From an uncultured Myxococcales bacterium (GTDB taxonomy: Bacteria; Myxococcota_A; Polyangia; Fen-1088): 64,000 nt of DNA. The notes under the pieces are model-generated. The model was not told where the DNA came from and ran no database searches. It worked only from the letters and a program-made list of their open reading frames with translations. The position numbers and the translations under genes were made by a program. The DNA is taken from contig CAZIOH010000007.1 in NCBI GenBank assembly GCA_964540815.1, positions 43,867 through 107,866 on the forward strand. Reading direction: 5' to 3'. Position 1 is the stretch's first letter; each line of letters starts with the position of its first letter. This document shows, piece after piece, positions 10,317 through 60,349 of the stretch.

Positions 10317-10361
10317 CGATTCGGTTCGGTCGGCCTACTCGGTGGTCGTGTGCGCTTCCCC

Positions 10362-11651: not shown

Positions 11652-11890
11652 GTCGACCTCCGGCCACTTCGGTTGGCCAACTGGCAATAGTAGACTCTTC
11701 ATGCTCGAAAGCCACAACGGGGACATTGTCCGGCAACAGCGTTGTCGCCACCTGCTCCATTGTCGAGCAAGAGCGTGGTCGACGACGTGCTCGCCCTCAT
11801 CGGCGATTCTCGCAATCGAACCCGCGGTGCTCCCTTCGCTGTCTCACAGGATCACCCGACCGCACCTGCGTTTCAGGGCCCACGGCGGGC

Positions 11891-12715: not shown

Positions 12716-12963
12716 GCGAGGATGTCCTTAGCGGCGGGTCTGTCCATGATCTTGCAGAGTCTACACCGCCGTTTTGCTCATGCCGTGAGGAGGGTCGACG
12801 CGCGTTTCGTGGCCTGATCGTCGCGAAGCGTCCCGACCGCGGTTGGTCCCGCGCCGTCGCGTAGCGGCGGGCTTCTCCGAGTGACTCCGGCGGGCAGGCC
12901 TTGTCAAAGAGAGCGATGGGCGCCAATGGGGACTGGGGCTCGGTCGTTGCGGACCTTATCGCC

Positions 12964-44167: not shown

Positions 44168-44176
44168 GCCGACGCG

Positions 44177-44896
44177 ATGAGGTCGGCCATCCTGATCGTC
44201 GCGGCATGGTTCGTGTTTGCTGACCTCGGTCAGTCCATGATTTTCAACTTCAGCGCGGAGGCAGCTCCCATGCAACCCGATTCGTCGACAAATTCACCCG
44301 CGAAGCTCGATTGTTCGTTCGATGTCGCGTCCGGTCAGTACCTCAGGGTCAAGGTGAAGCTCATCAATCAAGGCGCGGTCGACTTGTTCGTCCTCAATCA
44401 CCTCTGGAAGCTGAACTCGCAGAGTAGCGACGTTGATGATCCCGAACACGTCTACCGCTTTGTGCGCAACTCGGAGTTGCGGCTCTTGTGGGGGATTGCT
44501 CCGCTGCCCCGGCTCAAGTCAACGCTCTACCGAAATACTCCTTACGCGACCGCTGTGAGACCAAGGTCTTCGCTCGAGTGGGACTATTCGACGAAGATTC
44601 CCGTCTCGGAATACAACGTGTATTTTGCAGGCTCTCATGGCGGCCCCTTTCAGGCCTCGATGGTCGAGCGCGTGGTTGTGATCGTCGAAGTCATAGAAGC
44701 GAAGTCCGGTGTTCTGACGAAGCCTTCCGGGCTTGGTTCTTCGGTCGAAGTCACTGATTCCGATGCCGTCGAGTCTCGCAAGTCCATTGTCTGTGCTTCT
44801 GGGGCGATCGAGCTCGCGACCTTGAGACGAACCGATCAGTTCAGTCGCCTCGACATGCCAAATGAAGCGCCTGAGCCGCTACACCTGGCTCCCTGA
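44177..44896 (+). CDS. Putative cognate immunity protein of the PAAR-HExxH effector
   Basis: Starts 9 nt after the effector stop, same strand. N-terminal hydrophobic signal/anchor MRSAILIVAAWFVFADLG. Lower GC. Confidence 0.5.
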   Translation: MRSAILIVAAWFVFADLGQSMIFNFSAEAAPMQPDSSTNSPAKLDCSFDVASGQYLRVKVKLINQGAVDLFVLNHLWKLNSQSSDVDDPEHVYRFVRNSELRLLWGIAPLPRLKSTLYRNTPYATAVRPRSSLEWDYSTKIPVSEYNVYFAGSHGGPFQASMVERVVVIVEVIEAKSGVLTKPSGLGSSVEVTDSDAVESRKSIVCASGAIELATLRRTDQFSRLDMPNEAPEPLHLAP

Positions 44897-45946
44897 CGAA
44901 GCAACTGACCCGGACGTGGGACGGTACGGAATCTCGCCCTACCCCGGCCCACAGGACACCATCAAGATGGGGACCCACCAGAGCAAAATGGATACCAGCG
45001 CAACCATGGGTTGAGCGATGAGTGCGCGTGCCGCCGACAAGACGTCAGCGACAAATCCGGTCGGCGCTGGCTTGGAATCGGGAATCGCTTCGTCGAAGCT
45101 CATGTCGTCACCCCTCTCACTCTACTCGTCCAGGGCAAAGGGAGGTGAGCTCACCGCGCCACTACCCTCCGACGGGGCGCCGCCTTGCCGTCCTCCGTCA
45201 TGACGTCGAGGACCAACCCATCGGCGATCTCCACTTCGCGCGTCGCCTCTCCGCTGTCGCTTCGTGGTCACGCACGCGGGCAGCACGGCCTGCGCGGGCC
45301 GGCGTCTTGGACCCTGCCCGCGGATTGGGAAGGGCCCTTCGGACGGACGATCTAGTGCTGAACGTCGCTCGCCATCGCAGCAGGCTGGAGGCGTCGGACT
45401 CGGCGGGGGCGGGGCTGGCGCCGCCAGCGCTTTTAGGGGTGTTCGCGAGACCTCCACCGTCGGACCGCCGGTCGCGCTGTCGACCTCGCCCATAATCGAA
45501 CAGGAGGGGTAGTAGTGACTTGCGTGTCGGCCAAACGAGCGCGGACGATCAGGCGCTGGCCATGGTGCCTTTCTAAGAAGGGCGGAACGCTCCTGTCGGA
45601 AGGGCAGGTCTCTCAGGCCTCTCTGGCATTCGAAGAAGGCGAAAGACTGGATCCGAGCGGCGGAACGATCCCGTAGTGTCCCGAGAGCCATCGCCGCCGT
45701 TCACCCCGCCTCGCGGTGGTAGTAGTTCAAGAGGCTGCCGAGATCCGCGCGCTGCTCGTCATTGTGAGCATGACCTCCTTCAGAACCCGAACCTCTTCCT
45801 GCACATAGGCGAGCTTCCGCTGGATCCGCTTCCCGGAAGATGTGGCGGGCAATCGTTCCGCCGTGATGGGCCACCTCATCGCCTGGCGGGAGGCTCGACA
45901 TCTCGGCCCCGTTACGCCGATCTGCCTGCGTGGGCGGACCAGTCGA

Positions 45947-46732
45947 TCACTTGAAGAACGCAATGTCATCGATCCAGACGTCGAAGACGGGCGCCGCCGC
46001 GGGGATGCCGAACTCGACATTGGTCACATTGGCCACGTCGAGCGTGGGCCGCGGCAGACCAAAGCTGCGTTGCCCGAGCTGGCCGAAGTTAAAGGTGAAG
46101 CGCTGCCAGGCCGCGGTCAGCGTCAATGTGCTCCCGAAGTCGTCGTAGCACGCGGTGGGACCAGAGGTGAGGGTCTTGTCGCAGTGACCGCCGGCTGGGT
46201 TGGAGTACTGATCGCCGATGCCGAAGCGGACCGAACCGACGGACGTCTCGCCCTTGCGGGCCCAGAAGGTGATCCCCCGCGCGGCCGTGGCGTCATACGG
46301 CGTATCGACGTATTCGCCGCCAATCATGGCGACCCTGAAGCTGAAGCCGAAACCCGAGCCCCAGTCCGAAAAGCCGCTGCCGGTGACCCGCATCGCGCGC
46401 TTGCTGGTTCCGCAGCGCGGCTCGGGGATTGGCTCCATCGGAAACATCGTCTCGGGCGCCGGGTTGAGCGTTCCCGCGGTCATATCGTCATACGTGTACC
46501 AGATGGACACCCGACCATCCTTTGCCAGGATGAACTGATCGCCGTCCTCCATGTCGTCGATGTAGTCGAGCAGGCCAGGGTCGGGGACGGAACACAGCGG
46601 ATCGAGCTTCACCTCGGTGCTCGAGCCACCCCCGCATCCGCCCAAGGCCGTCGCAACCAGCACCGCGCCCACGGGAAACCAGAACCAAGGCAATGAAGTG
46701 GGCGACGGTGATGACGTATGTCCATGCATGGC
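45947..46732 (-). CDS. Lipoprotein with CBM-like beta-sandwich domain (paralog family with 56477..57337)
   Basis: Lipobox ATALGGCGG. Conserved GGHCDKTLTSGPTACYDDF and C-terminal PVFDVWIDDIAFFK (compare GGRCDPTATDNPRTACYDSF and LTFDIWIDDLYFVPR). Confidence 0.6.
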   Translation of the reverse strand, partial: AMHGHTSSPSPTSLPWFWFPVGAVLVATALGGCGGGSSTEVKLDPLCSVPDPGLLDYIDDMEDGDQFILAKDGRVSIWYTYDDMTAGTLNPAPETMFPMEPIPEPRCGTSKRAMRVTGSGFSDWGSGFGFSFRVAMIGGEYVDTPYDATAARGITFWARKGETSVGSVRFGIGDQYSNPAGGHCDKTLTSGPTACYDDFGSTLTLTAAWQRFTFNFGQLGQRSFGLPRPTLDVANVTNVEFGIPAAAPVFDVWIDDIAFFK

Positions 46733-46855: not shown

Positions 46856-48217
46856 TCAGGCGAAGCCCGACAGCGGCCCGGTGCACCATTCGGCCTTCCC
46901 GAAGGTCGTCGCCGGAATGTCCATGGCCTGCAGGATCGAGACCAGCAGGTTGTTGTGAGGGGGATCGCCGGTGAACGATAGAAAGCGACCGGTGCGCACG
47001 GCACCCCCGGCCTGACCGGCGAGCACGTAAGGGGCCAGCTTGCGGCTGTGGTTGTTTCCCTTGCCGAGCTCGTTGCACCAGAAGACCAGCGACGCGTCCA
47101 GGAGCCGGCTGCCGTCGACCTCCTGCGCGCCGGCCAGCTTGCCGACCAGGGCGGCGAAGCGCTCGGCATACCAGTGGTTGATGCGGGTCAGCTTGTCGAC
47201 CGCCTGCGCGTCGTCGTCGGGCAGGTGTGACAGATCGTGGTGAACGTCCGTGATCGGTTGCGGAAGCCAGGTGAAGCGGGTCTGCGACACCGAGCGCGAC
47301 CATTGCAGCGACGCCACGCGCGTCAGGTCGCACGCGAGCGCAACCACCAGCAGATCGATCTGCAGATCTCCGATTGCTGGAAAGTCGTCATTCGTGCCCC
47401 CGCCCCCGGCGGGCAAGGAGGGCGCGCCGGGATCGCGGCAGGACGGACTCGGCACGGCGAGTGAGTCGAGGCGCGTCTCGATGTCGCGAACGATGGTGGC
47501 ATGCGCGTCCAGGCGCACCCGATCGGCCGCTCCGACCCGCGCCCTGACCGCTTGAAACTGGCCGAGCACGGCGTCGAGGACGCTCCTCCGTCGTGCACGC
47601 AGGCGCGCCAGGTCCTCGGCCGAGGCCCCCCCCGCCGCGCCAAACAGCCGGGCATACGCCCGCTCGGGGCTCTCTTCGGGCGGGACCGGCTGATCGGGAC
47701 CAACGTAGCTCATGCGACCCCAGTTGTCCGCGGCCCCAACCTGAACTCCCAGCTCCAAGGAACGCAGACGGGTCCCGGACCCGAGCGTCGCCGCCACCTG
47801 CTGATCGACCGAGATTCCGTTGGCCCAACCCGAGGCGCCCGCGCTCGCTCCCCCCTGGAACGGGCCCGGATTGAGGCTCTGGCCGGTCAGCATGCCGCCG
47901 ATCCCGTTCTGGTGACCGTCGCCGCCGCCGCCCTGCTGAAAGAGGCCCGAGACCACCAGCAGGTCGGCTTGAAGAGCGCCGAGGGGATCGAGGATCGGCG
48001 CCAGCGCGAAGTCGGTCTCGGTACCCGAGGGAACCCAGTTCGGGAAGATGGTGCCGTTCGGGGTGAAGACCACCACGAATCGCTTGGGAATCACGGTCGC
48101 GGCCCGCGCGTGGCCGGGGTCCATCGCCTCGAGCAAGGGGAGCGTGAAGGCGGCGCCCGCCGTGCGCAGAACCGCGCGGCGGGAAAGGAGCGGACGACCT
48201 GTCTTGATGACGATCAT
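46856..48217 (-). CDS. DUF1552-family protein with Tat signal (second copy)
   Basis: MIVIKTGRPLLSRRAVLRTAGAAFTLPLLEA. Homologous throughout to 17233..18816. ATG overlaps the upstream stop (48214-48217). Confidence 0.8.
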   Translation of the reverse strand: MIVIKTGRPLLSRRAVLRTAGAAFTLPLLEAMDPGHARAATVIPKRFVVVFTPNGTIFPNWVPSGTETDFALAPILDPLGALQADLLVVSGLFQQGGGGDGHQNGIGGMLTGQSLNPGPFQGGASAGASGWANGISVDQQVAATLGSGTRLRSLELGVQVGAADNWGRMSYVGPDQPVPPEESPERAYARLFGAAGGASAEDLARLRARRRSVLDAVLGQFQAVRARVGAADRVRLDAHATIVRDIETRLDSLAVPSPSCRDPGAPSLPAGGGGTNDDFPAIGDLQIDLLVVALACDLTRVASLQWSRSVSQTRFTWLPQPITDVHHDLSHLPDDDAQAVDKLTRINHWYAERFAALVGKLAGAQEVDGSRLLDASLVFWCNELGKGNNHSRKLAPYVLAGQAGGAVRTGRFLSFTGDPPHNNLLVSILQAMDIPATTFGKAEWCTGPLSGFA

Positions 48218-49893
48218 GGCGCGATGACCTCCGGGGCTCGTCGATATCGAAAGGCGTCGGTCTGGGTCAGGGCGACCATCAGCTCGCGAACGTCGCCACC
48301 CTTGGCGGAGGCGGCGTCCATCAACGCTCCGAGCGTGCAGGAGTCAGCGGCGGTCTCGGCGCGGCCGTAGCCGAAACGGAACCACTGCGTGACGTAGCAG
48401 CGCTGAACTTCCGGGCTGGCCGCCAGGCGGTCGGCGAGCTCGACCGCGCCGTCGAACGGCCCGTCCGAGTCGGTGCCGGTCAAGGCGCCGTGGGCGTCGA
48501 TGGTCAGCCCCGACTCGGTTGTTCGCCAATGGCCGAGGCCGTCGTAGTGCTCGAACCCGAAGCCGATCGGATCCAGCATGGTGTGACAGGTGGCGCAGAA
48601 CGGGTCGGCGGTGTGCGCGGCGAATCGCTGGCGGGTCGTCTGGCGCGGATCGAGGGCGGGGGGCCGAATCTCGACGTTGCTCGGCGGCGGCGGTGGCGTC
48701 GTGCAAAAGAGCTGCTCGCGAACGAACCGTCCTCGGTGGACCGGCGAGCTCTGATTTGCCTTCGCGTAGACCGCCAAGATGGATGCCTGGGTGAGGAGGC
48801 CGGCCCGGTTGGTGGACCCGAGGCCCACCTGGACCAGGTCGCCGCCGCCGGGGTAGGCCACGCCATAGAAGTCCGCCAGGGTGCTGTCCACGAAGGTGTA
48901 TCGCGCCGACAGCAACGCCGAAAGCGTCCCCTCGTGGTTCCAGATGACCTCGTCGATGAATCGCGCAGTCTCGGCTCGAAACGCATCCCGCAGCGAAGGC
49001 GAATACGCGGGATAGACCACGCGATCCTTGTCCAGCTGATCGAGGCGATCGAGGCCCAGCCAGCCGGCGTGAAACGCCGCCGTGACCTCGTGGGCGCGCG
49101 CGTCGCCGAGCAACCTTCGCGCCTCCCGCTCGAGATCCTCAGGAAGCGTCAGTCGGTCCTCGGCGGCCGCCGCCAGCAGGGCGTCGTCGGGCGTCGAGCC
49201 CCACATGAGATACGACAGGCGCGTCGCCAACTCGTGGGACGAGAGCGGAACCGCACCCGGGAGATCGGAGGCTGCGCCATTGCCGAGCTCGATCCGGTAC
49301 AGGAACTGCGGACTCTCGAACAGGACCTGGACCACACGCCCGATCCCCTCGGTGAAGCCACCGTCGTTCTGCCCGGCGACAAAGACGGTCTGGAGCGCCG
49401 CGGTCTCATCCGATTCCAACGGACGGCGCCAGACGCGACCACCGAAGGCACCAATGAAGCTGTCGGCACATCGGCTGTCCGGGGAGGTCGTCGCGCACGG
49501 AAGAAACCGACCGAGGTCCTGGAGCATCACCGACGATGCCTGCTCCGCGAGAGCCACCGTTTGCTCCACCAGGAGATCGCTGGTTCCGAGGACGTCGGCG
49601 TTGTTGTCGAAGCCGAGCGCCTGCTCGTCGGGGGGAAGTCCCGATGTGTCGACCAGCCCCGGCCCCAGGAGATCGCGGAGCGTTCGCCCGTACTCCGCGC
49701 GCGTCAGTCGGCGCAGCGGCGACGGACCCGAGTCGCGCGATGCGCAGAGCGGGGCCGCGCGTCCGCCAACGCGCGGTGGGGGCGAGTCGGCGTGGCTCCG
49801 GCAGCCAGTCCATGTCGCCGTGACCAGTCCCGCGAGGCCGAGCAACGACACACACGACCTCACGTGGGGTGTCTGGATGGCCATCGTCGTCAT
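48214..49893 (-). CDS. DUF1592/DUF1588-family lipoprotein with CxxCH motif (second copy)
   Basis: GGGAGG Shine-Dalgarno before ATG 49893. Lipobox TATWTGC. ...DPFCATCHTMLDPIGFGFEHYD. Homologous to 18813..20672. Confidence 0.75.
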   Translation of the reverse strand: MTTMAIQTPHVRSCVSLLGLAGLVTATWTGCRSHADSPPPRVGGRAAPLCASRDSGPSPLRRLTRAEYGRTLRDLLGPGLVDTSGLPPDEQALGFDNNADVLGTSDLLVEQTVALAEQASSVMLQDLGRFLPCATTSPDSRCADSFIGAFGGRVWRRPLESDETAALQTVFVAGQNDGGFTEGIGRVVQVLFESPQFLYRIELGNGAASDLPGAVPLSSHELATRLSYLMWGSTPDDALLAAAAEDRLTLPEDLEREARRLLGDARAHEVTAAFHAGWLGLDRLDQLDKDRVVYPAYSPSLRDAFRAETARFIDEVIWNHEGTLSALLSARYTFVDSTLADFYGVAYPGGGDLVQVGLGSTNRAGLLTQASILAVYAKANQSSPVHRGRFVREQLFCTTPPPPPSNVEIRPPALDPRQTTRQRFAAHTADPFCATCHTMLDPIGFGFEHYDGLGHWRTTESGLTIDAHGALTGTDSDGPFDGAVELADRLAASPEVQRCYVTQWFRFGYGRAETAADSCTLGALMDAASAKGGDVRELMVALTQTDAFRYRRAPEVIAP

Positions 49894-50235
49894 GTCCCGA
49901 TCCTCCCTTCCCGCGTCGTTCGCTCCTGCGGTCGTATCCGACGCGGCGACCCGCGGTGCCAAGGAAGGAGAGCAACAGCCGTGCCGGACGGATTCGGTCC
50001 CGGAAGGGTGATCCACCGCGGCGTAGTCGCAGGATTGCGGCGCGAAGCCATGGATCCGGACGTCCGCGCGACGTCCAGCGGACGTACGCGGCGATCCCTC
50101 GGGTGTGGGGAGTCCATCGATCTCGGCATAGGGGAAAGGGTCTGCGCGGGAACACCTCCGAGCACCGTTGCAAAATGTGGCTCCTTCCGTCCAATTCCGC
50201 GGATCCCGCAGGCGTGATATGGATCGTCTGTTGCC

Positions 50236-51660
50236 ATGGGCTCAGATGTGGGGAACACGACGGTTGCGGCAACGAGCGGCGAGGCGCGAGGCATCACGGC
50301 GCCGGATCTGGCGCTGGTGTGGCTCTTTCCCCGACCATCCGAATCGGCGGTGAGTCTCCGCTGGGAGGGACCGGAGGAACGGGTCATCGGCCGGGAAGAG
50401 GGATGTGCGATTCGCCTGCTCGGGAGCGACGTCTCCCGCCGCCACGCCACGCTGCGAAGGACCGGGCCTGAGTTCGGCACCGAGCTCGTGGATCTCGGCA
50501 GCCGCAACGGCATCCACGTCAACGGCTGCCAGGTATCGGCCGCGTATCTCAAGGGCGGGGACGTCGTTCGCCTGGGGGGCTGGATCGGCGTGGTGACGGA
50601 TACGCCGGGAGTCTTCAAGGAGATCGCGCCCGGGTTGCTGGGAGGGGCGGCGCTCCAGGCCGCGCTCGCTCCCTTCGGGCGCGCGGCGGCGAGCGATCTG
50701 CCCATCGTCATCGAGGGCGAGACTGGCACCGGCAAGGAGGTCGTCGCGCGCGGTATCCACCAATGGAGCGGGCGGGCGGGACCCTTCGTCGGGGTCAACT
50801 GCGCCGCCCTACCAGAGGCCCTCGCCGAGGGTGAGCTGTTCGGGTACCGGCGTGGCGCCTTCACGGGCGCGGACAAGGCGAGCCCAGGATTTTTTCGCAG
50901 CGCCGACCGCGGGACGTTGTTGCTCGACGAGGTGACGGATCTCCCTGCGGCCCTGCAAGCAAAACTGTTGCGCGTGCTCGAGGAGCGCGAGGTCCAGCCC
51001 CTTGGAGAGGCGCGGCCGGTCCCGATCGACGTCCGCGTCGTGGCGGCCGGCCAGGTCTCGCTGCTTGAAGCGTCCCGCCAGGGTCGTTTCCGACCCGATC
51101 TGCTGGCCCGACTCGACGGCGTCACGGTCAAGCTGCCTCCGTTGCGCAGCCGGCGCGAGGACGTGCCGCCGTTGTTTTCACATTTCCTGGCGGAGCTGGG
51201 TCAAGGCCATGCGCCCGCCGTGGATGGTGACCTCGTCGAGCGGCTGTGTCTGCACGACTGGCCTTTCAATGTTCGCGAACTGCTCCTGCTGGCTCGCCGC
51301 CTGGTGGTGCTGCACGGCGGGGAATCCACCCTCCGGGCACTCCACCTGCCGGATCGAATGAGCGGGCGGCCCGGGCCACGGACTCCGACCGATGGCGTCC
51401 AGGCGAAGTCCTCGCCCGCCAGCCCGCCGGCGGCGGCCGCATCCACGGCTCCCGCCGAGCCCGTGGAGCTTCCGGCGCTCGTCACCGCCCTGCGCGCGTC
51501 GAGCGGGAACGTCGCCCGCGCGGCGGCAATGCTCGGCATCACGCGACAGCGGGCGTATCGACTGATGGACGGTAAGGCCATCGATCTCGAGGGGCTGCGC
51601 GGTCAAGAGCCAGCGCCCGAACACGGTCAAGGGCAAGAACCGAAGGCGGGTGGGCGATGA
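50236..51660 (+). CDS. Sigma-54-dependent transcriptional activator with N-terminal FHA domain (FHA, AAA+ sigma54-interaction, Fis-type HTH)
   Basis: FHA core RVIGREEGCAIRLLGSDVSRRHATL...GSRNGIHVNG. Walker A GETGTGKE. GAFTGA motif. C-terminal HTH ARAAAMLGITRQRAYRLM. Confidence 0.85.
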   Translation: MGSDVGNTTVAATSGEARGITAPDLALVWLFPRPSESAVSLRWEGPEERVIGREEGCAIRLLGSDVSRRHATLRRTGPEFGTELVDLGSRNGIHVNGCQVSAAYLKGGDVVRLGGWIGVVTDTPGVFKEIAPGLLGGAALQAALAPFGRAAASDLPIVIEGETGTGKEVVARGIHQWSGRAGPFVGVNCAALPEALAEGELFGYRRGAFTGADKASPGFFRSADRGTLLLDEVTDLPAALQAKLLRVLEEREVQPLGEARPVPIDVRVVAAGQVSLLEASRQGRFRPDLLARLDGVTVKLPPLRSRREDVPPLFSHFLAELGQGHAPAVDGDLVERLCLHDWPFNVRELLLLARRLVVLHGGESTLRALHLPDRMSGRPGPRTPTDGVQAKSSPASPPAAAASTAPAEPVELPALVTALRASSGNVARAAAMLGITRQRAYRLMDGKAIDLEGLRGQEPAPEHGQGQEPKAGGR

Positions 51661-54503
51661 ATGCCATGCCCCAGACCACGCGGGTCGGCGAGTTCATCGG
51701 GGGCAAGTACCGCATCGTGCGCGTGCTCGCCGAGGGCGGCATGGGGGTCGTCTACGAGGCCCAGCACGCGGTGGTCAAGCGCCGCTTCGCGGTCAAGTTC
51801 CTGCGCCCCGATCTGGCCCACCAGCGTGGCCTTCTGAGCCGCTTTTACCGTGAGGCCCAGGCCGCCGGCGCGCTCGAGAGCGAGAACATCGCCGCCACCA
51901 TCGACTTCGGCATCCTGAGCGACGGCACGCCCTACATCGTCATGGAGTACCTGACCGGTGAGAGCCTGCGTGCGCTGCTCGAGCGCGAAGGCCGCCTGGC
52001 GCCCGCGCGGGCGGCCGACCTCTGTGTGCAGGCCTGTCGCGGGATGGAGGCGGCGCACGCGTCGGGCATCATCCACCGCGATCTCAAACCCGAGAACCTG
52101 TTCCTGTGCCGGCGCGACGATGGAACCGACCTGCTCAAGATCCTCGATTTCGGCATCGCGAAGCTCGAGCAGATCGAGACCAACAACGCCGCCACGCGCA
52201 CCGGAGCGATCTTGGGAACCCCCGCGTACATGTCCCCCGAGCAGGCCCGGGGCGAAAAGACCATCGATCACCGGACCGACGTCTACGGCCTGGCCGGGAT
52301 CCTGTTCGAGATGCTCTCGGGAAAGCATCCGCATCCAGGCGATTCGCACAATGCGATCTTGCACCACATCTCGACGCAGCCGGCGGTGCCGCTTCATTCC
52401 GTGCAACCCGACCTCCCCGCTCCGCTGGCGACTGCCGTCGAGCACGCCCTGGCATCGGATCCGGCGAATCGACATGCGTCGGTCGAGGCCTTCACGCGGG
52501 AGATCGCCCCGTTCGCGCGACGACAGGTGTGGCCACCCGCGAAGGACACCGGCGGGGCTTCAGGTGTGAGCGTCACCTCGTCGACTCCCGGTGTGCGGCC
52601 GGCAAGCGGGGTGGCGCCAGGCGGCGTGGCCCAGGCTTCCACCGGACCGCTCGACCGAGGCGGGTCAGCGGTCATCGCAGGCCCAAGGCCGCGTCCACCG
52701 CTGCGGCTGCGGCCGGTCATGGTCGGTGCTGGACTTCTGGCCGCGGTGGTCGCGACGGCGATCGGGATCAGCCTGCGCCTCCACCGCCGGCCGGATCCGG
52801 GGAAGACCGCGGACGGGGCCGGGGGCAAGGAGACGGTTCGAACCTCGCACGATCGGGTGCAGCGGACCGTGGGCGATCGGACGCTGCCCAAGGAGGCCCG
52901 ATTCTTCGTGCCCGCCACGATGCCCGGCGCCGTTCAGCAAATCGCGACCTTGATCAAGCAGAAGGCGTTCCTGGACGCCGCCCCGCTCACGGCGATGCAG
53001 GCGACGCCGCAAGGCATATGGCTGGCCGGCGGAACGCCCGACGAGGTCCGGGCCGCCGTAGGAAACGTCATCGTTCGCGCCGCGCCCGACCAGCGGGTTC
53101 CGGTCCTGGTGGCGAACAACATCCCATTCCGCGACTGCGCGCAGTACTCCGCCGGTGGCGCGACGAATGCCGCTGAGTACAAGGCGTGGATCGACGGGTT
53201 CGCAAGCGGGATAGGCAATGGCCGGGCGGTGGTCATCCTCGAGCCCGATAGCCTGGGCATCATTCCCTATAACACCACGATCTCCGGCGAGTCCGACTGG
53301 TGCAAACCGACGATCGCGGACGCGCAGGGCCGGACGATCCCGGCGCCGGGAGCCACGCCCAGCGAGCGCTACGCCCTGATCAATGACGCGGTGGACAGCA
53401 TCGTCGCCAGGGCGCCGAACGCATCCGTGTACCTGGATGGCACGCACGCCGGTTGGCTGAGCGTGGGGGAGATTGCGAGCCACCTGGTCAAGGCCGGAGT
53501 CCGTCGTGCGCAAGGATTCTTCGTCAACGTGGCGAACTTTCAGCCCACGCCGCAGTCGATTGAATATGCGACCTGGATTTCGAAGTGCATTCACTACGCC
53601 AGCAACCCGGCGGAACGGGGCCGCCGGTTGGGGCGGTACGGCGACTGCGCTAGCCAATATGGGCCCACGGGCCCGAAGCCCTACGACGAGTGGGCCGAGA
53701 CCGAGAAGTGGTACGTCGACAACGTCGACCGGGCGCCCAACCCGCCATCCGGGCCATCGGCGCTGACCCACTTCGTGATCGACACCAGCCGGAATGGCCG
53801 CGGCCCGATGGATGCCGCTCGCTTCGCTGCGGCTCCGTATGACCAACCGGCGGACGTCATCAAGGGTCTGGCGAGCGGCAACTGGTGTAACCCGCCGGAC
53901 ACCGGTCTCGGGTTGCGTCCCACGGCGAATACCGGCGTCGCGCTCGTCGACGCATATCTGTGGGTGAAGGTCCCAGGTGGCTCCGACGGATCGTGCGACA
54001 TCGCGGGTGGAGCTCGCGCATGGGACTACGCCCGGTACAACCCCTGGGGCATGGAGGGGGATGCGCAGAAACACTTCGATCCGCTGTGGGGAGCGGTCGA
54101 TCCCGGCGCCGGCGAGTGGCTGGCCGAGTATGCCTTGCAACTGGCGCGGAACGCGAACCCACCCCTGCAGGCTCCCGGGCCGATCACCGTCCTGCAGGCC
54201 CCGAGGGGCGGCAGCGAGGTCGACCAGGGCGGCCATCGCCGCGAGGTCCGCGCACGCCAGACTCGCTCCTCCTCGGCTTCCGACACGCGCGGCTTGGAGC
54301 CACCGACTGGCGGCGCCCCCGGTATCCTTGCGCAGGCCCCGTCCGGACGTCCAGCCGGACGTCCGGACGGACGTGCCGAAGGGCATCCGGCACTCCCCGC
54401 CGCGCTCACGGAAACCCCTGAGCACGCGCCGACGACGGCCCGTGTGCCCGAGCCGCGCGCACCCCGGATCACCTTCGACCCGAACAACCCGTACGGTGAC
54501 TGA
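51657..54503 (+). CDS. Membrane Ser/Thr protein kinase with extracellular glycoside hydrolase family 6 (GH6)-like domain
   Basis: Kinase motifs (GGMGVVYEA, HRDLKPENLFL, DFGIAKL, GTPAYMSPE). TM VMVGAGLLAAVVATAIGISL. GH6 signatures VLVANNIPFRDCAQYSAGGA and VVILEPDSLGI. ATGA overlap with the activator gene. Confidence 0.8.
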   Translation: MNAMPQTTRVGEFIGGKYRIVRVLAEGGMGVVYEAQHAVVKRRFAVKFLRPDLAHQRGLLSRFYREAQAAGALESENIAATIDFGILSDGTPYIVMEYLTGESLRALLEREGRLAPARAADLCVQACRGMEAAHASGIIHRDLKPENLFLCRRDDGTDLLKILDFGIAKLEQIETNNAATRTGAILGTPAYMSPEQARGEKTIDHRTDVYGLAGILFEMLSGKHPHPGDSHNAILHHISTQPAVPLHSVQPDLPAPLATAVEHALASDPANRHASVEAFTREIAPFARRQVWPPAKDTGGASGVSVTSSTPGVRPASGVAPGGVAQASTGPLDRGGSAVIAGPRPRPPLRLRPVMVGAGLLAAVVATAIGISLRLHRRPDPGKTADGAGGKETVRTSHDRVQRTVGDRTLPKEARFFVPATMPGAVQQIATLIKQKAFLDAAPLTAMQATPQGIWLAGGTPDEVRAAVGNVIVRAAPDQRVPVLVANNIPFRDCAQYSAGGATNAAEYKAWIDGFASGIGNGRAVVILEPDSLGIIPYNTTISGESDWCKPTIADAQGRTIPAPGATPSERYALINDAVDSIVARAPNASVYLDGTHAGWLSVGEIASHLVKAGVRRAQGFFVNVANFQPTPQSIEYATWISKCIHYASNPAERGRRLGRYGDCASQYGPTGPKPYDEWAETEKWYVDNVDRAPNPPSGPSALTHFVIDTSRNGRGPMDAARFAAAPYDQPADVIKGLASGNWCNPPDTGLGLRPTANTGVALVDAYLWVKVPGGSDGSCDIAGGARAWDYARYNPWGMEGDAQKHFDPLWGAVDPGAGEWLAEYALQLARNANPPLQAPGPITVLQAPRGGSEVDQGGHRREVRARQTRSSSASDTRGLEPPTGGAPGILAQAPSGRPAGRPDGRAEGHPALPAALTETPEHAPTTARVPEPRAPRITFDPNNPYGD

Positions 54504-54504
54504 C

Positions 54505-55698
54505 ATGGCACGCGATCTGCTGGCTCGGCCCAAGAGCATGCGTGTTCCGTGGCTTACATGGATCGGGTTGTTCCTGCTCGCCTCGACCCCCGTCCTCGCC
54601 GAGACCACGGTCGCAAGGCAGGCCGACGACCCAGGGTCGGCTCCGCGAGGAGGCGGGGCTCCGCCCGAAGAAGCGTCCCAAGAAGCCCGCGAGGCGGCGC
54701 GCGGGCATTTCGCCCAGGGACTGGAGCGCGCAGGCCAGGCTGACTACGAGGGTGCCCTCCGCGAATTCACCGAGGCCTACGCGCTGAGCGCGCATTTCGC
54801 CGTCCTGTACAACATCGGCCAGGCCCAGATCGCTCTCGGCCACCCACTGGAGGCCGTCGAGACCTTGTCGAAGTACCTGCGCGATGGTCAAGAACAGGTT
54901 CCATCCGACCGCCGCTTGCAGGTGCAGGCTCAGGTCGAGCTCCTGCAGTTCCTCTTTGCCGAGCTGACCGTCACGACCGACCGCCCTGGGGCCCTGATCT
55001 TCATCGATGGTCGCGAGGTCGGCCGCACCCCCCTCTACCAGTCCGTTCGCTTGCCCGCCGGGACGCACACGGTGTCCGCCGTGGTGCAAGGGATGGCCCC
55101 GATCGTTCGCAGCGTGACCATCGCGCATGGGGAACGCCAGGTTGTGAACCTGGCGATGCCCGCCACCCCCGCGGTGGCGGCCAAGGACACGGGTGCACCT
55201 GCACCCGCACAGACGCCCGCACCCGCGTCCGGGGCTGGTAAAGCCACGGAGGGGCGCGCTCGCTCCGAGCCCGATCTCACGCTGGGAACGCCCAGCAGTG
55301 GGCGCACCCTGCCGGCGTTGGCGTACGCCGCCGTCGGAATTGGCGTGGCGCTGGGGGGGGCGGCGCTCGCGGTGTATCTCGGCAACCGAGGACGCTACCA
55401 GGACTGGGAAGCCAGCAACGCGGCACTCGAGAACGACAAGGGCGCCATCGACCATTACGCCCAGCAGACCGCCAACAATCGGCTCGCGGATTCACTCACG
55501 CGGGACAACCACCTCGTCGCCGGGCTCTCCATTGCCGGCGGTGCGTTGGTGGCGGGCGGGCTGACCTTCTTGATCCACGACCGGTTGCGAGGTGGGAGAG
55601 AAGGGGCTCGCGCGGACGACTCGACTGGCGCGTTCGGCCTGACCTGGGCCCAGCAAGGATCGGCGTCGGGCGCCATTTCTTGGAGCAAGCGGTGGTAG
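54505..55698 (+). CDS. Secreted TPR-like plus PEGA-domain protein with C-terminal TM segment (paralog of 36729..37883)
   Basis: Signal MRVPWLTWIGLFLLASTPVLA. PEGA PGALIFIDGREVGRTPLYQSVRLPAGTHTVSAVV. TM LAYAAVGIGVALGGAALAVYL. Starts 1 nt after the kinase stop. Confidence 0.65.
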   Translation: MARDLLARPKSMRVPWLTWIGLFLLASTPVLAETTVARQADDPGSAPRGGGAPPEEASQEAREAARGHFAQGLERAGQADYEGALREFTEAYALSAHFAVLYNIGQAQIALGHPLEAVETLSKYLRDGQEQVPSDRRLQVQAQVELLQFLFAELTVTTDRPGALIFIDGREVGRTPLYQSVRLPAGTHTVSAVVQGMAPIVRSVTIAHGERQVVNLAMPATPAVAAKDTGAPAPAQTPAPASGAGKATEGRARSEPDLTLGTPSSGRTLPALAYAAVGIGVALGGAALAVYLGNRGRYQDWEASNAALENDKGAIDHYAQQTANNRLADSLTRDNHLVAGLSIAGGALVAGGLTFLIHDRLRGGREGARADDSTGAFGLTWAQQGSASGAISWSKRW

Positions 55699-56477
55699 CC
55701 GGCTACGCGGACGGGCAGGGTGCGCGAGCGAGCGCGGGCGTGTCGGCGAGCGCGACCGCGACCGCGGCCGCGACGACATGGGGGATGGGCGCGATCCTGT
55801 CGGCCCTGGCGCTCTCGGCCTGTTTCGACGTGCAGAAGATCGATCCGGGCAAGGAAGCCTTTGTCATCTCCGACTTCGAGCAGGGCCAGGCCGTCGCGAA
55901 CAGCGCCCTGTTCGATCGATGGTTTTGTATCACCTTCAATCCGCAGCTCGGCCAGGATCCCGGTCAGACGGTGACCTGCGCCGTGGAGGACTACCCGGGC
56001 GACCAGAGCCAGTTCGGCTTGATGGCCACGTTCGCGCTCCACAACGGACTCCCCGACGCCCAGTACGCGGGCGCGACCTTGATGACGATCGCAGATGACG
56101 CGGCGGTCGATTTCAACGGCTTTCAGTATCTCTCCTTCAAGCTGAGGGTGGAGTTTGGCGGGCCCCCGCCGCCCACGGCGCAGGTGGATGTGCAGCTCGG
56201 CTGTAACTCCGTCGCGGGTCAGGACACGAATGACCATCAAGAGTACTTCGACCTGTTCCACCTGATCGCAGCGACCCCCACCTGGTCGACGTTTCAACTC
56301 CCACTTTCTTCGTTCATGCAACGCATGGACGAGACAAACCTTTTCAAAGGTGGGCCCAAGGCGTGTCTCGGGCTGGTTGACAGTGTTCGTTTTGAAGTCA
56401 ACGCACTCTTGATGCAGGGCCAGTCGGCAAGCGGCACGCTTCATATCGACGATGTGCGCCTGGAGGGCCCCGTCTAA
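55680..56477 (+). CDS. Lipoprotein with CBM-like beta-sandwich domain
   Basis: Lipobox ILSALALSAC. C-terminal SGTLHIDDVRLEGPV. Start uncertain (55680 or ATG at 55785). Confidence 0.5.
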   Translation: MEQAVVAGYADGQGARASAGVSASATATAAATTWGMGAILSALALSACFDVQKIDPGKEAFVISDFEQGQAVANSALFDRWFCITFNPQLGQDPGQTVTCAVEDYPGDQSQFGLMATFALHNGLPDAQYAGATLMTIADDAAVDFNGFQYLSFKLRVEFGGPPPPTAQVDVQLGCNSVAGQDTNDHQEYFDLFHLIAATPTWSTFQLPLSSFMQRMDETNLFKGGPKACLGLVDSVRFEVNALLMQGQSASGTLHIDDVRLEGPV

Positions 56478-57337
56478 TGACGCCCAGACGGTCTTGCCTC
56501 GAGATCGAGAAGCCGCTCACCCCGCCGTCTTCCGTGGTGGTGATGGTCTGTGTGCTGACCGGGGTCTCGGCCTGCTCGAGTGGTGCGCCAGAGACCGGCT
56601 ACACTCTCATCGATGACATGGAGGGCACGAGCGGCATCATCGAATGGACTGCCCTGGTCGGAAGCCCGGGCAGCTGGGACTCTTTTTCGGACCAGCCGGG
56701 CAGCGTTCTGCCGTTGCCACGAGACGAGGGGGGCGTGTGGTCTCAGGATCTGGTGCCAGCTCCGTACCAGACCCGGCCCGGGATCACGAGCACGCATGCA
56801 GCCCGCCTTCGAACCACGACTCCACTCGTCAACCAATGGGGGGCCGCGATGGGTTTCGACTTCGCGGACCTCCCGACCTTACCGACTTCCTCGACATCCA
56901 CGGGGCATTCGACGATGTCGGCGGTGGGCGTCGACTTGACGGCGTTCCGGGGCATCTCTCTGTGGGCAATGGCGTCTGGCACCGGCACGACGACCGTTGA
57001 CCTAGAGGTCGACGATTCGAATACCCACCCGAGCGGCGGGCGTTGCGACCCGACGGCGACCGACAACCCCCGAACCGCCTGCTACGACTCGTTCAGCTTC
57101 CCGCTCGACCTCACGGGCACGTTCACGCGGTACACCATCGACTTCTCCCAGTTGAAGCAGGCCGCGTTCGGCCATCAGACGATGCCGAGCGTGCTGACCC
57201 AGGACAACGTGTACGGAATGTCGTTCGCCGTCCGTCCCCCCGGCGGCTTCTGCCCGCCCACCACGATGTGCGCAGGAGCACTCCCGACGTTGACGTTCGA
57301 CATCTGGATCGACGATCTGTACTTCGTCCCCAGGTGA
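56477..57337 (+). CDS. Lipoprotein with CBM-like beta-sandwich domain (paralog of 45947..46732)
   Basis: Lipobox VLTGVSAC. GGRCDPTATDNPRTACYDSF. C-terminal LTFDIWIDDLYFVPR. Confidence 0.6.
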   Translation: MTPRRSCLEIEKPLTPPSSVVVMVCVLTGVSACSSGAPETGYTLIDDMEGTSGIIEWTALVGSPGSWDSFSDQPGSVLPLPRDEGGVWSQDLVPAPYQTRPGITSTHAARLRTTTPLVNQWGAAMGFDFADLPTLPTSSTSTGHSTMSAVGVDLTAFRGISLWAMASGTGTTTVDLEVDDSNTHPSGGRCDPTATDNPRTACYDSFSFPLDLTGTFTRYTIDFSQLKQAAFGHQTMPSVLTQDNVYGMSFAVRPPGGFCPPTTMCAGALPTLTFDIWIDDLYFVPR

Positions 57338-57828: not shown

Positions 57829-59271
57829 TCAAGGCAGCAGCGGAGGATTTGCGTTCCGCGCGAGCTGTAGCGCCTGCTCCGGGAACCACGCGCCGGCCGC
57901 CGGGTCGACCAGCCCCCACAACGGGTCAAAGTGGATTTGTGCGTCGCCCGTGAGGGCCCAGGGGTTGTAGACCGAGAAGTCCCAGGCGCGCGCCCCGCCC
58001 GCGATGTCGCATGATCCGTCGGATCCAGCCGGAGTCTTCACCCAAAGAACCGCGTCTTCGAGCGGAACGCCCGTGTTCGCTGACGGTCGCAGGCCCAAGC
58101 CGGCACCAAAGGCGTTGCACCAGCTTCCCGCGTTCAGCCCGGCGATGACGTTCGCCGGCTGGCTGAAAGGCGGGGCCACGAACGGCGCCGTGTCGAGGAC
58201 ACCCTGACCATTGCGGCCGGTGTCGATGACGAAGTGAGACAGCGCCGCCGGTCCCGCTGGCGGATTGGCCGCATTGTCGACGTTGTCCGCGTACCACTGA
58301 TCGGTCAGCCCCCATGTTGAAAAATCGGTGGGCGTGGCCGGAAAGTATTGGCTGGCGCAGTAGTCGTAGTGACCAAGCCGCCAACCGCCTTCCGCGGCAT
58401 TGCTCGCATAGTAAATGCACTTCGAGATCCAGGCGCCGTACTTTGTCAGCTGCGCCGTCGGCTGGTAATTCGACACGTTGACGAACAGTCCCTTGGCGCG
58501 CTGGACGCCCGCCTTGACCAGGCGAGAGGCGGCCTCCCCGACGGGAAGCCAGCTGCTGTGCGTGCCGTCGAGATACACCGAGGCGTTGGGCGCGCTGCCG
58601 TTGATGCTGTCGACGGCGTGGTTCATCTGCGCGTACCGTTCGGTCGGATTCGCGCCCGGGGCGGGAACTAAATTGCCCGAAGCATCCGTCACCGTGGGCT
58701 TGCACCAGTCGGCTTGACCGTCGATGGTCGTGTTGTAAGGGATGATGCCCAGACCGTCGGGCTCGAGGATGACCAGAGCCCTTCCGGAGCCAATGCCTTG
58801 GGCGAAGCCGTCGATCCAGGCGTCGTAGGCGGCCGTGTCGGCCGCGCCTCCTCCTGAGTACTGCGCGCAGTCACGGAAAGGGACGTTGTACGCGACCAGG
58901 ATGGGGACACGGTGTGCCCGTGCGGCGTGCGCCATCGTATCGTGCACGGCGGCCTCGACCTCGGCGGGCGTGCCTCCATTGAACCACACGGCTTGTGGCG
59001 TCGCTTCCATCGCGAACAACCGCGAGGCGTCGCGAAAGTGCCGGCCCTTTACCAGATCCTCGATCTGGGCAACGGCCGCGGGAGCGGCCGGCGGAACGTA
59101 AAAGCGCGTGTTCGCCGCCGGATCTCCGGCGCACGGAGCTTGTGCCTCGAGCGCTGCCTCCGTGACGGTCGCCTCCGGCTCCGTGCCCGGCCCCGATGGA
59201 TCCCCCGCGCACCCCAGCAGGATCAGCATTTCACACACACAGACACTCCCAACCAACATCTGCTTCTTCAT
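57829..59271 (-). CDS. Glycoside hydrolase family 6 lipoprotein (paralog of the kinase-fused GH6 domain)
   Basis: MKKQMLVGSVCVCEMLILLGCAG lipobox. ILVAYNVPFRDCAQYSGGGA and LVILEPDGLGI GH6 signatures. Collinear with residues 400-900 of 51657..54503. Confidence 0.8.
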   Translation of the reverse strand: MKKQMLVGSVCVCEMLILLGCAGDPSGPGTEPEATVTEAALEAQAPCAGDPAANTRFYVPPAAPAAVAQIEDLVKGRHFRDASRLFAMEATPQAVWFNGGTPAEVEAAVHDTMAHAARAHRVPILVAYNVPFRDCAQYSGGGAADTAAYDAWIDGFAQGIGSGRALVILEPDGLGIIPYNTTIDGQADWCKPTVTDASGNLVPAPGANPTERYAQMNHAVDSINGSAPNASVYLDGTHSSWLPVGEAASRLVKAGVQRAKGLFVNVSNYQPTAQLTKYGAWISKCIYYASNAAEGGWRLGHYDYCASQYFPATPTDFSTWGLTDQWYADNVDNAANPPAGPAALSHFVIDTGRNGQGVLDTAPFVAPPFSQPANVIAGLNAGSWCNAFGAGLGLRPSANTGVPLEDAVLWVKTPAGSDGSCDIAGGARAWDFSVYNPWALTGDAQIHFDPLWGLVDPAAGAWFPEQALQLARNANPPLLP

Positions 59272-60349
59272 TGTTTCCCATCCCTCTCTTGGTTTGACGC
59301 GGCACCCGTCGAATGTGAACAAACCCGATCCTTCGACGGATTGCTTCCGCCGCGGCGGCCCACGATGACGATGGCCATAGCAACCGCCGCGCCAGCGACG
59401 ACCGACAAAGACAGCGGCCGAGTCCGGGCACCGTCGAGCGTGAGGAGCCGTAATGTCGCGGAATGGTCGGCGTCCATGTTGGGCTGGTCATCGCGGACGC
59501 CGGGACCGGACGTCCGCGAGATGTCCGCGGTCGCTCGTCGGCAGCGTGCGCGTGGCCTGAGCGGCTTCAGGCGTGCGCGCAACAGGAGCTCGACGTGTCC
59601 GGCCAGGATAGGGTCATGTCTCATCCCGAGGCCCACGGGCCGGATGACGGGGGCGCCCCCATCGCTTCGTGGTCGCAAGCGGCCCACCGCTCGCCGTGGC
59701 GATCCGCCATGTCCATCGAACGACGAACGCCGCGTCCCGGGCATCGAGGTCAGCGAGAGCTGTGACCGACACAAATGTTTTCACTCCTGCTCGACCGCTG
59801 AATGGCACGATATGGGAATGTGATCCCGTACCCGGCGGTAGCCGGGGCTCCGGCCGTTCCCATGCGGGCAGGAACATGACCGGCCAAGGACTGCGCCCGC
59901 TGGCAGAAGCGGATTGGAGGTCCCCTTTTTAGGCCGACTGCCACCGTCTATGTTGCCGTCCGAAAGGCCTTCCGAAGCCGGCCCAGGCCACGCCGCGGGC
60001 CTCCTAACTCGCCCCACGGCTCGGACCTGTCCGCTCGGAATCACGAGGTCGACGCCCGCGCCCAGGGGGATCTCCGAAGATGGTGTCGACCCGGCTGTGA
60101 GGCACCCCGTGCCGCACGAGGACTCAGCGACGTTGATCTGCCTCGCACTCTACCTGCGACCCGATGGGTCGGCTGGATCGATTGTGAAAGATCGGCGGCG
60201 ATGAGTCCTGTGATCCTGGCGCCGAGACTCAATAATCTCTTGGGGACAATGGCCTTGAGATGCGTCCCCTGGATAGCGTTAGCGTGTTGCAGAGCAGGTG
60301 CGCTGGCAGGTCCGCTCGCCGTCCATCTGGGCGTCGAGTTTACCCTCGC

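Follow-up and report, generated by a model that had tools for sequence, protein, structure and literature searches.

A GH6-Derived Receptor Kinase Paired with an FHA-Sigma54 Activator: A Candidate Polysaccharide-Sensing Module of Polyangia

Overview

A 64-kb stretch of DNA from an uncultured Myxococcales bacterium, hereafter the window (all coordinates refer to its forward strand), carries two overlapping genes, one for a sigma54 activator with an FHA domain and one for a membrane-spanning Ser/Thr kinase whose outer part has the fold of a glycoside hydrolase family 6 (GH6) cellulase. The pair is read, with somewhat more than even confidence, as a module for polysaccharide sensing by a receptor Ser/Thr kinase and a sigma54 activator, in which the GH6 fold serves mainly to bind a ligand. 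The kinase-GH6 protein and the activator probably turn on working enzymes of the same type when the sugar chains of those enzymes are present. The architecture of the module and its conservation, the relaxation of catalytic residues in the outer domain, and the cis-elements with their target genes are directly observed and are described first.

The Receptor Kinase and Its Outer Domain

The kinase gene encodes the following parts (amino acids, aa; transmembrane, TM; AlphaFold model, AF2; predicted local distance difference test, pLDDT):

51657..54503, + strand: receptor Ser/Thr kinase with GH6 ectodomain, 948 aa (Pfam)
51708..52475, + strand: Hanks-type kinase domain, aa 18-273 (Pfam Pkinase, E 9.6e-41)
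52713..52781, + strand: single TM helix, aa 353-375 (Kyte-Doolittle scan; AF2 helix 361-374)
52890..54170, + strand: GH6-derived putative sensor domain, 427 aa, aa 412-838 (Pfam, phmmer, Foldseek, AF2)
54171..54503, + strand: disordered C-terminal tail, aa 839-948, with the terminal peptide ITFDPNNPYGD (low pLDDT; tail motif)

The kinase domain contains the residues expected of a Hanks-type enzyme: GEGGMG, K47, E66, HRDLKPEN at 140-147 (HRD140-142, N147), DFG at 164-166 and SPE at 193-195. The Lys, Glu, HRD, Asn and DFG positions are invariant in 114-116 of the 116 family members, and the activation-loop residues Thr180 and Thr182 are present in the window kinase and conserved across the family. 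It is also noted that 50 of the 116 members read HRDLNPQN, with Asn for the catalytic-loop Lys at position 144; the window kinase has the canonical Lys. A protein identical to the window copy (P0001) occurs on 6 metagenome contigs (JGI, ENA).

Arg-rich stretches flank the TM helix, and the juxtamembrane linker (aa ~295-352) is rich in Ser, Thr and Pro and disordered, with low pLDDT. The full-length AF2 model, computed from 111 aligned family members (mean pLDDT 77), gives a confident kinase domain, a disordered linker, a confident GH6 barrel (pLDDT mostly >85 in the GH6 part) and a disordered tail. It was used in place of a model of the ectodomain on its own, made from a 13-sequence alignment, which was dropped at a pLDDT of 71 with the C-terminal third below 60. 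The preliminary description of this DNA had given the protein one TM helix and an extracellular domain of about 500 aa. The single helix stands, and the size has to be revised: the part beyond the membrane is 573 aa, made up of a linker, the 427-aa GH6 domain and a 110-aa disordered tail. As Myxococcota are diderm, the GH6 domain is placed in the periplasm rather than strictly outside the cell.

That the ectodomain has a GH6 fold, as first proposed, is borne out by three lines of comparison. Pfam Glyco_hydro_6 (PF01341) matches aa 439-783 at E 5e-58 (197.7 bits against a gathering cut-off of 27). Sequence searches with phmmer match Mycobacterium tuberculosis (Mtb) Cel6 (1up0, E 2.7e-38) and Thermobifida fusca Cel6A (1tml, E 1.7e-29), and a Foldseek search with the model returns the same two structures at E 1e-18 and E 4e-17, with a TM-score to the target of ~0.8 (0.78-0.82).

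An alignment with characterised GH6 enzymes (T. fusca Cel6A, Mtb Cel6), proposed earlier as a check on the catalytic Asp residues, finds all four of them kept: Asp493 (RDC), Asp531 (EPD), Asp594 (YLD) and Asp777 (GSDG) align in HMMER with T. fusca D79, D117, D156 and D265. Both GH6 signatures had also been ascribed to the domain. Against the PROSITE patterns, the second (VVILEPDSLG) is intact and the first (VANNIPFRDCAQYSAGG) fails at the Tyr position only, where Asn487 (codon 53115-53117, context VLVANNIPFRDC) replaces the conserved Tyr (T. fusca Y73, Trichoderma reesei Y169). By the residue roles described for GH6 enzymes, Asp531 would be the catalytic acid and Asp777 the proposed base, and the Tyr of the first signature distorts the sugar at the cleavage site. 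The PDB entries 2boe, 2bof and 2bog are of the Y73S mutant of T. fusca Cel6A, and 2bof contains intact cellotetraose. By analogy, this suggests that loss of the Tyr may leave binding in place with little cleavage.

Loss of Catalytic Residues in the Fusion Family

A search of 5.8 billion proteins, clustered at 90% identity, places the fusion of Pkinase and Glyco_hydro_6 in >110 clusters of 750-975 aa that are 50-69% identical to the query. Nearly all are metagenomic, and their names, where given, are 'endoglucanase' or 'Polyangia bacterium GH6 protein'. Since the same architecture recurs in >110 clusters and 22 genome loci, chance adjacency and a chimera of the assembly were both rejected. When one genome of each species was scanned with the motifs WD[YF]x[RKQ][YHF]NPW and FDPLWG[MA]V, the GH6 subfamily of the window was found in 68 loci. 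The kinase-fused form is confined to metagenome-assembled genomes of Polyangia/Myxococcota; the free-standing form also occurs in Actinomycetes and Chloroflexota, and the only isolate carrying the subfamily is Micromonospora sp. KC723. The closest genome, with 86-89% identity, is that of 'Myxococcales bacterium fen_1088'. A fusion to a kinase is found in only 2 of the 150 best GH6 representatives (50% identity), and others carry collagen, Ig-like or ricin-lectin modules. In a neighbour-joining tree the fused ectodomains form one clade, and the fusion thus arose a single time.

The catalytic residues of 43 free-standing GH6 domains of the same subfamily, taken from genome loci, were compared with those of 116 kinase-fused domains. 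The Fisher tests handle related sequences as independent, so the significance given here is overstated, a point that weighs against the reading of the fold as a sensor:

Tyr (T. fusca Y73): free 43/43; fused 57/116 (Asn 25, Ser 20, Phe 10); Fisher p = 3e-11
Acid Asp (D117): free 42/43; fused 80/116; Fisher p = 4e-5
Base Asp (D265): free 43/43; fused 87/113; Fisher p = 2e-4

The full catalytic set is present in only 26 of the 116 fused domains, and all four Asp in 75. More than 20 different substitution patterns are found among them, a variety that argues for repeated losses. The window copy falls, with its two nearest relatives, into the class where Tyr has become Asn and the four Asp are kept. 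Ten Trp positions of the ectodomain (including W600, W743 and W769) are kept in 91-100% of the family (106-116 of 116), and six Cys together with Asp594 are invariant or nearly so. As catalytic residues have been lost and the fold, the Trp residues and the kinase have been kept, selection appears to have preserved the fold and the kinase, not catalysis. This pattern of conservation points to a ligand-binding receptor domain, a sensor and not an enzyme. The original suggestion that the GH6 fold acts as a sensor is thereby strengthened, in that relaxation of the catalytic residues is confined to the kinase-fused clade. The sole free protein without the acid Asp is a secreted GH6 protein of 685 aa (L008, 9857-11914, + strand) with EPN for EPD and a C-terminal extension of ~230 aa. 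It nests within the kinase-fused clade and is possibly a sensor domain minus its kinase.

It could be argued instead that the protein is mainly a membrane-anchored, active GH6 glucanase, so that catalysis or the release of its product in the periplasm, and not mere binding, is what matters and the kinase either reports turnover or is regulated separately. The window protein does retain Asp493, Asp531, Asp594 and Asp777, 75 of the 116 members have all four Asp, 26 of the 116 carry the full set, and many members are annotated 'endoglucanase' by JGI. This is nonetheless considered quite unlikely. Of the 116 members, 59 have lost the Tyr and 36 the acid Asp, and the base Asp is gone from 26 of 113, whereas the free enzymes keep these residues in 42-43 of 43; and a fully equipped paralogue is encoded 3.3 kb off.

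Pairing of the Activator with the Kinase

The gene upstream of the kinase encodes the activator (helix-turn-helix, HTH; bacterial enhancer-binding protein, bEBP):

50236..51660, + strand: FHA-sigma54 enhancer-binding protein, 474 aa (Pfam; NCBIfam bEBP families; motif conservation in 22 orthologues)
50383-50577, + strand: FHA domain, aa 50-114 (Pfam, E 2.6e-14)
50650-51129, + strand: AAA+ sigma54-interaction domain, aa 139-298 (Pfam Sigma54_activat, E 2.9e-55)
51457-51549, + strand: HTH_8, aa 408-438 (Pfam)

AAA_lid_14 is also matched by Pfam. The features of a sigma54 activator are all present: Walker A (GETGTGKE), the GAFTGA loop, Walker B (LLLDEV) and a C-terminal HTH_8. The FHA domain contains the loops predicted to bind phospho-Thr, namely G52-R53, S67-R-R-H70 and N91-G92. 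None of these elements varies among 22 activators, neither the FHA loops (GR, SRRH, SRNG) nor Walker A, GAFTGA, Walker B or the HTH.

The stop codon of the activator and the start codon of the kinase overlap as ATGA at 51657-51660, and the open reading frames (ORFs) and Pfam domains agree with the earlier account of an FHA-sigma54 activator overlapping a Ser/Thr kinase at this position. The arrangement is not peculiar to the window. The activator gene lies directly upstream of kinase-GH6 in ~20 of 22 loci, and a 4-nucleotide (nt) stop/start overlap (ATGA, GTGA or TTGA) is found in ~19 of 23 distinct loci. The overlap persists over 50-65% protein divergence. In three cases (P0090, P0114, P0117), read-through or natural fusion ORFs join the activator and kinase domains. 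Together with the invariance of the FHA residues in 22 activators, these observations support the activator as the likely partner of kinase-GH6, and the proposal that the two act as a unit holds up.

The signal could pass by docking of the activator on the phosphorylated kinase, by phosphorylation of the activator, or by both; the direction and chemistry of the relay are proposed from what is established for FHA proteins and PknB-type kinases. A different possibility is that the activator is not under this kinase at all: adjacency would then reflect co-expression, with the FHA domain reading another kinase or the kinase acting on other substrates. Myxobacterial genomes do hold many Hanks kinases, with another in the window at 24436-25791, and in one locus (L003) the activator operon has a separate 473-aa kinase and the kinase-GH6 gene is divergent. 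Such uncoupling is judged highly improbable in view of the 4-nt coupling in ~19 of 23 loci over 50-65% protein divergence, the activator-kinase fusion ORFs (P0090, P0114, P0117), and the position of a putative activator site right behind the kinase gene in nearly all loci.

The L003 locus (5373-9239, - strand; 10001-13827, + strand) is also of note for its organisation. It has an activator operon with the separate 473-aa kinase and a PEGA trio, and kinase-GH6 and canonical GH6 genes that are divergent from it. In the operon of the window, two modules of the L003 type seem to have merged into one.

Activator Sites, Sigma54 Promoters and Their Targets

A composite pattern recurs in the DNA that follows kinase-GH6 genes at unrelated loci. 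Two (C)GGACGTCC(G) palindromes lie 12-41 nt apart and 57-180 nt ahead of TGG(C/T)(A/C)CG-N4-TTGCT, which is followed by a gene. The promoter part of the pattern corresponds to the sigma54 -24/-12 consensus, extended G included, and the tandem CGGACGTCCG palindromes, of 10 bp, are the putative activator site, here termed the upstream activating sequence (UAS). The window contains the following elements:

54345..54373, no strand assigned: UAS1, GGACGTCC at 54345 and 54357 with a degenerate third copy, within the kinase tail-coding region, 149 nt from P1
54506..54521, + strand: P1, sigma54-type promoter TGGCACGCGATCTGCT, 3 nt past the kinase stop (position and sequence conserved in 8 other loci)
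59494..59515, no strand assigned: UAS2, GGACGTCC (59508-59515) and degenerate GGCGTCCG, ~113-115 nt upstream of P2
59379..59394, - strand: P2, sigma54-type promoter TGGCGCGGCGGTTGCT, 107 nt upstream of the ATG of the GH6 lipoprotein (composite site)
50058..50087, no strand assigned: UAS3, GGACGTCC, GACGTCC and GGACGTAC, in the intergenic DNA between the activator gene and the divergent operon, ~72-100 nt from P3
49971..49986, - strand: P3, sigma54-type promoter CGGCACGGCTGTTGCT, 77 nt upstream of ATG 49895 (composite site)

P1, P2 and P3 each have GGACGTCC repeats 72-149 nt upstream, which agrees with the form expected of sigma54 promoters: -24 GG and -12 GC elements at exact spacing (TGGCACG-N4-TTGCW) and activator sites ~70-200 nt ahead of them. 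Scanned for the plain sigma54 consensus (TGGCAC-N5-TTGC, at most 2 mismatches), the window gives 59 matches against 59.4 expected, and GGACGTCC is not enriched in the window when counted by itself (6 against 3.1 expected; 12 of 100 shuffles reach 6). Since neither element is enriched singly, the signal lies in the pairing and position of GGACGTCC with the sigma54 promoter. The composite pattern occurs exactly 3 times in the window, each time flanking the activator-kinase operon, with 0.125 expected; in a Markov simulation of the window, 0 of 200 runs reach 3. A scan for sigma70 promoters and terminators over 49.8-59.7 kb stays at chance level, and rpoN is absent from the 64-kb window.

At nearly every locus a UAS follows the kinase gene directly, and the UAS1/P1 arrangement recurs in eight loci (L004, L024, L026, L042, L043, L044, L063, L069). 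GH6 lipoproteins are among the genes that follow the pattern. Those of the canonical type follow it in L002, L003/L005, L007, L015, L020, L022, L023, L055 and L056 (Pfam up to 344 bits), and those of the sensor subfamily in the window and in L004, L026, L030, L043, L044 and L046. A GH8 lipoprotein follows it in L036 (E 7e-23), TPR/PEGA proteins in the window and 8 further loci, a 153-aa lipoprotein in 5 loci, and an extracytoplasmic function (ECF) sigma factor in 2 loci. Canonical GH6 genes with no adjacent kinase-GH6 (L028, L043, L044) have neither UAS nor promoter, and no GGACGTCC pairs were found in the Actinomycete loci.

The genes of the window that lie behind P1, P2 and P3 are as follows:

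57829..59271, - strand: free-standing GH6 lipoprotein, 480 aa, MKKQ...LLGC lipobox (Pfam, E 8.8e-57)
54538..55698, + strand: exported TPR and PEGA protein with a C-terminal TM helix (ATG 54538 starts the signal peptide; orthologues follow the kinase in many loci)
55692..56477, + strand: lipoprotein p261, lipobox LSAC, a conserved gene that accompanies the PEGA gene in many loci
56477..57337, + strand: lipoprotein p286, lipobox VSAC, third gene of the PEGA operon and conserved in many loci
46856..49895, - strand: divergent operon of a DUF1592-family gene (48214-49895) and a DUF1552/HXXSHH gene (46856-48217) (Pfam; gene calls; composite site)

The free-standing GH6 lipoprotein is the paralogue encoded 3.3 kb from kinase-GH6. 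Over 423 aa aligned gap-free it shares 67% identity with the sensor, and its catalytic set is complete, with the Tyr (VAYNVPFRDC) and every Asp. The view that the free GH6 and the sensor of one genome are recent duplicates was rejected, because all fused domains group in a single old clade and because the free GH6 under this control is, at most other loci, of the canonical short type with 26-30% identity to the sensor. What the loci share is thus a class of enzyme and not a recent duplication.

The DNA that encodes the kinase tail (54171..54503) doubles as the carrier of the UAS for the downstream operon. The tail itself ends in the motif (T/A)FD(P/S/T)xNPY(R/G/K)x-stop in 29 of 116 kinase-GH6 proteins, including P0002-P0004 and P0010, and the proteins with this motif are those with a TPR/PEGA gene next downstream. 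The conserved peptide may, as a speculation, be a docking peptide for the TPR protein. In a separate observation, 473-aa kinases that lack GH6 and precede PEGA genes (L026, L043) have the same C-terminal peptide. For the TPR/PEGA gene of the window, the start called by the gene finder at 54505 was rejected, as it falls within the conserved P1 and the signal peptide begins at ATG 54538.

A family search with p261 and p286 yields only Pfam CBM_11 at E 0.023, below the cut-off, and PDB profile searches give no significant match, the best being CBM11 (1v0a, E 0.28); neither protein is therefore assigned to a family. Both proteins start with (I/L)DD(F/M)E(D/G)G and finish with (I/V)DD(V/L)x(L/F), which is reminiscent of beta-sandwiches like those of carbohydrate-binding modules (CBMs). 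A paralogue of p286 lies at 45842-46696 (+ strand). The DUF1592/DUF1552 operon is a putative regulon member specific to the window, and its association with kinase-GH6 was not seen in the other loci. A second DUF1552 protein is encoded in the window at 17233-19557 (- strand).

Proposed Mechanism

In the proposed pathway, the kinase would span the inner membrane, its catalytic domain facing the cytoplasm and the enzyme-derived GH6 fold the periplasm. A soluble beta-1,4-glucan chain or cello-oligosaccharide would bind the sensor, and the kinase would then autophosphorylate on Thr. The FHA domain of the co-translated activator would dock on the phospho-Thr, or the activator would itself be phosphorylated, or both, and its AAA+ domain would be freed to assemble. 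The activator would bind the tandem CGGACGTCCG sites via HTH_8, as their conserved co-occurrence suggests, and would open the sigma54 promoters of the GH6 lipoprotein, of the TPR/PEGA gene with the two lipoproteins, and of the DUF1592/DUF1552 operon. Basal enzyme could generate further ligand, which would provide positive feedback. We infer the ligand, the steps of the phospho-relay and the direction of regulation. As sigma54 elements stand ahead of working GH6 and GH8 genes, the logic would be to sense the substrate by means of a disabled copy of the enzyme and to induce the working enzyme.

The broader proposition is that a lineage of Polyangia possesses an undescribed pathway, which leads from a receptor for cello-oligosaccharides or beta-glucans, with a GH6 pseudo-enzyme or nearly dead enzyme as its ectodomain, through phospho-Thr and FHA to a sigma54 activator at CGGACGTCCG, and from there to the genes of GH6/GH8 glucanases at the surface or in the periplasm and of a TPR/PEGA envelope complex. 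Its chances are put at about even.

Several points weigh against glucan sensing by a disabled enzyme. With regard to the sensor, the window ectodomain may retain residual hydrolysis because it keeps all four Asp. A periplasmic location means that insoluble cellulose is not the direct ligand. The GH6 subfamily of the window has large insertions relative to the solved endoglucanases, no characterised member of this subfamily was found, and the best solved relative is 28% identical (Foldseek), so that substrate specificity is extrapolated from the family. With regard to transcription, the binding of GGACGTCC by the activator HTH is suggested by geometry, position and co-occurrence alone, and P1 lies only ~17 nt ahead of the first plausible start codon, which would leave a very short leader. 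With regard to the organism, the domains and cis-elements are read from sequence and the host is uncultured. The preliminary description had thought the scheme plausible for a cellulolytic myxobacterium. This part finds no backing here: the DNA is from a lineage of uncultured Polyangia seen in metagenomes that is not known to be cellulolytic, and the large ORFs of the 64-kb window include no other gene related to cellulose or its utilisation.

The same scarcity of cellulolytic genes in the window fits another explanation, in which the module monitors a self-made or envelope glucan (a cellulose-like exopolysaccharide or matrix) or the polymers of prey or biofilm, and controls periplasmic trimming and envelope proteins, not nutrition. 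The sensor and the regulated GH6 and GH8 proteins are periplasmic or lipid-anchored and have no CBM. The regulon, too, is one of envelope proteins (TPR/PEGA, lipoproteins, ECF sigma factor, DUF1592/DUF1552), not of transporters or beta-glucosidases. GH8 enzymes of the BcsZ type and GH6 enzymes such as Streptomyces CslZ are known as partners of glucan synthesis, which also speaks for it. However, no glycosyltransferase or cellulose-synthase gene is present in the window or in three fully listed loci, and in Actinomycetes and Chloroflexota the free subfamily carries lectin, Ig-like and collagen-like modules, typical of secreted degradative enzymes. An envelope role of this kind is judged unlikely.

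Comparison with Known Systems

For the sensing of sugar chains by kinase-GH6 and its activator, the closest functional analogue is the RsgI6/sigmaI6 pair of Clostridium thermocellum. The outer GH10 domain of RsgI6 has very low activity and still binds xylan and cellulose; it shares 57% identity with Xyn10D, and xylanase genes are among those that sigmaI6 turns on (PMC4711584). In both systems an outer sensor with a glycoside hydrolase fold resembles an enzyme of the regulon (57% to Xyn10D for RsgI6, 67% to the GH6 lipoprotein here), and the response, a proposed one here, is to transcribe genes for enzymes of like type. The chassis differs. RsgI6 works through an RsgI_N anti-sigma domain, autoproteolysis and cleavage by RseP that frees sigmaI, whereas the parts found here are a Hanks kinase, phospho-Thr, FHA and a sigma54 AAA+ protein. 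RsgI6 has a GH10 domain on a Gram-positive surface and the present protein a GH6 domain in a diderm periplasm, and the signalling parts are unrelated in sequence. Pfam and NCBIfam find no RsgI or sigmaI domains in the kinase-GH6 module, the cytoplasmic part of which is Pkinase, and the protein is not an RsgI member.

On the signalling side, the FHA-type sigma54 activators of Myxococcus xanthus are the nearest relatives. Jelsbak, Givskov and Kaiser reportedly described them in 2005 and proposed a link from Ser/Thr kinases to sigma54 promoters. They have the same architecture of FHA, sigma54 AAA+ and HTH and belong to the same phylum as the window activator. To our knowledge, cognate receptor kinase, ligand class, DNA site and target set have never been tied together for these proteins, whereas here the receptor, the ligand class, the DNA site and the targets can all be proposed from sequence. 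The PknB-type PASTA kinases (of Mycobacterium, and PrkC of Bacillus) likewise join a Hanks kinase through one TM helix to a glycan-binding domain beyond the cytoplasm, and have FHA readers. The logic of receptor kinase plus FHA is shared; in the present case the sensor is a 427-aa GH6 barrel and the reader is a sigma54 activator of the same operon. PknB_PASTA_kin (NF033483) is the best NCBIfam match of the kinase domain, but at 267.5 bits against a cut-off of 450, and over the kinase domain only, it does not confer membership. No PASTA repeats are matched by Pfam in kinase-GH6.

The ectodomain has the fold and the RDC, EPD, YxD and SDG motifs of Mtb CelA1/Cel6 (1up0) and T. fusca Cel6A/E2 (1tml), with identities in Foldseek alignments of 28% to 1up0 and 21-22% to T. 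fusca Cel6A. It differs from the solved GH6 proteins in four large insertions (~135 extra residues), in Asn for Y73 and in the kinase fusion, and its subfamily has motifs of its own, WDYxRYNPW and FDPLWGMV, unlike the Mtb and T. fusca enzymes. A conceptual likeness is offered by CHRK1 of tobacco, a chitinase-related receptor-like kinase with a GH18-fold ectodomain that lacks catalytic residues. CHRK1 is eukaryotic, is built on another GH family and signals differently downstream, and the likeness goes no further than the concept.

A literature search found no Pkinase-GH6 fusion and no pathway of an FHA activator with a Hanks kinase, with coverage that was incomplete, so that absence is not proof. 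Known already are the sensor derived from a carbohydrate-active enzyme on a transmembrane regulator, and the receptor Hanks kinase read by FHA; new is the kinase-based GH6 version. If the proposed pathway is correct, it would be, as far as known, the first bacterial route from a Ser/Thr kinase to sigma54 with ligand class, receptor, reader, DNA site and targets defined. The disabled enzyme as the sensor for its own regulon would then have been invented twice independently, RsgI6 being the other case. Such convergent use of a decayed glycoside hydrolase would extend a principle documented until now for clostridial RsgI/sigmaI.

The eukaryotic-like kinases of myxobacteria number in the hundreds and their FHA-type sigma54 activators are many, and we know of a signal, partner or target for almost none of them. 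The module would supply a complete and testable chain, from ligand class, kinase and FHA reader to a 10-bp palindrome, sigma54 promoters and enzyme targets. Over 110 database entries that bear the name 'endoglucanase' or 'GH6 protein' are probably receptors, not cellulases. The module is also a candidate glucan-inducible switch for myxobacterial synthetic biology.

Other Genes of the Window

Further regulatory genes lie elsewhere in the window. A hybrid histidine kinase of 1311 aa with multiple PAS domains and a receiver domain is encoded at 1516-5451 (- strand), and the further Hanks kinase at 24436-25791 (- strand) is fused to a cyclic-nucleotide-binding domain. The gene at 33018-36254 (- strand) encodes a 1078-aa regulator with adenylate/guanylate cyclase, AAA_16 and TPR (MalT-like) parts. 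A second PEGA-domain protein may be encoded at 36729-37883 (+ strand), by a weak match at E 8e-4, below the cut-off. At 43166-44167 (+ strand), a PAAR motif is fused to a Peptidase_M91 effector domain, a candidate toxin of the type VI secretion system; this gene is followed by a stretch of lower GC content (0.58) at ~44000-45000.

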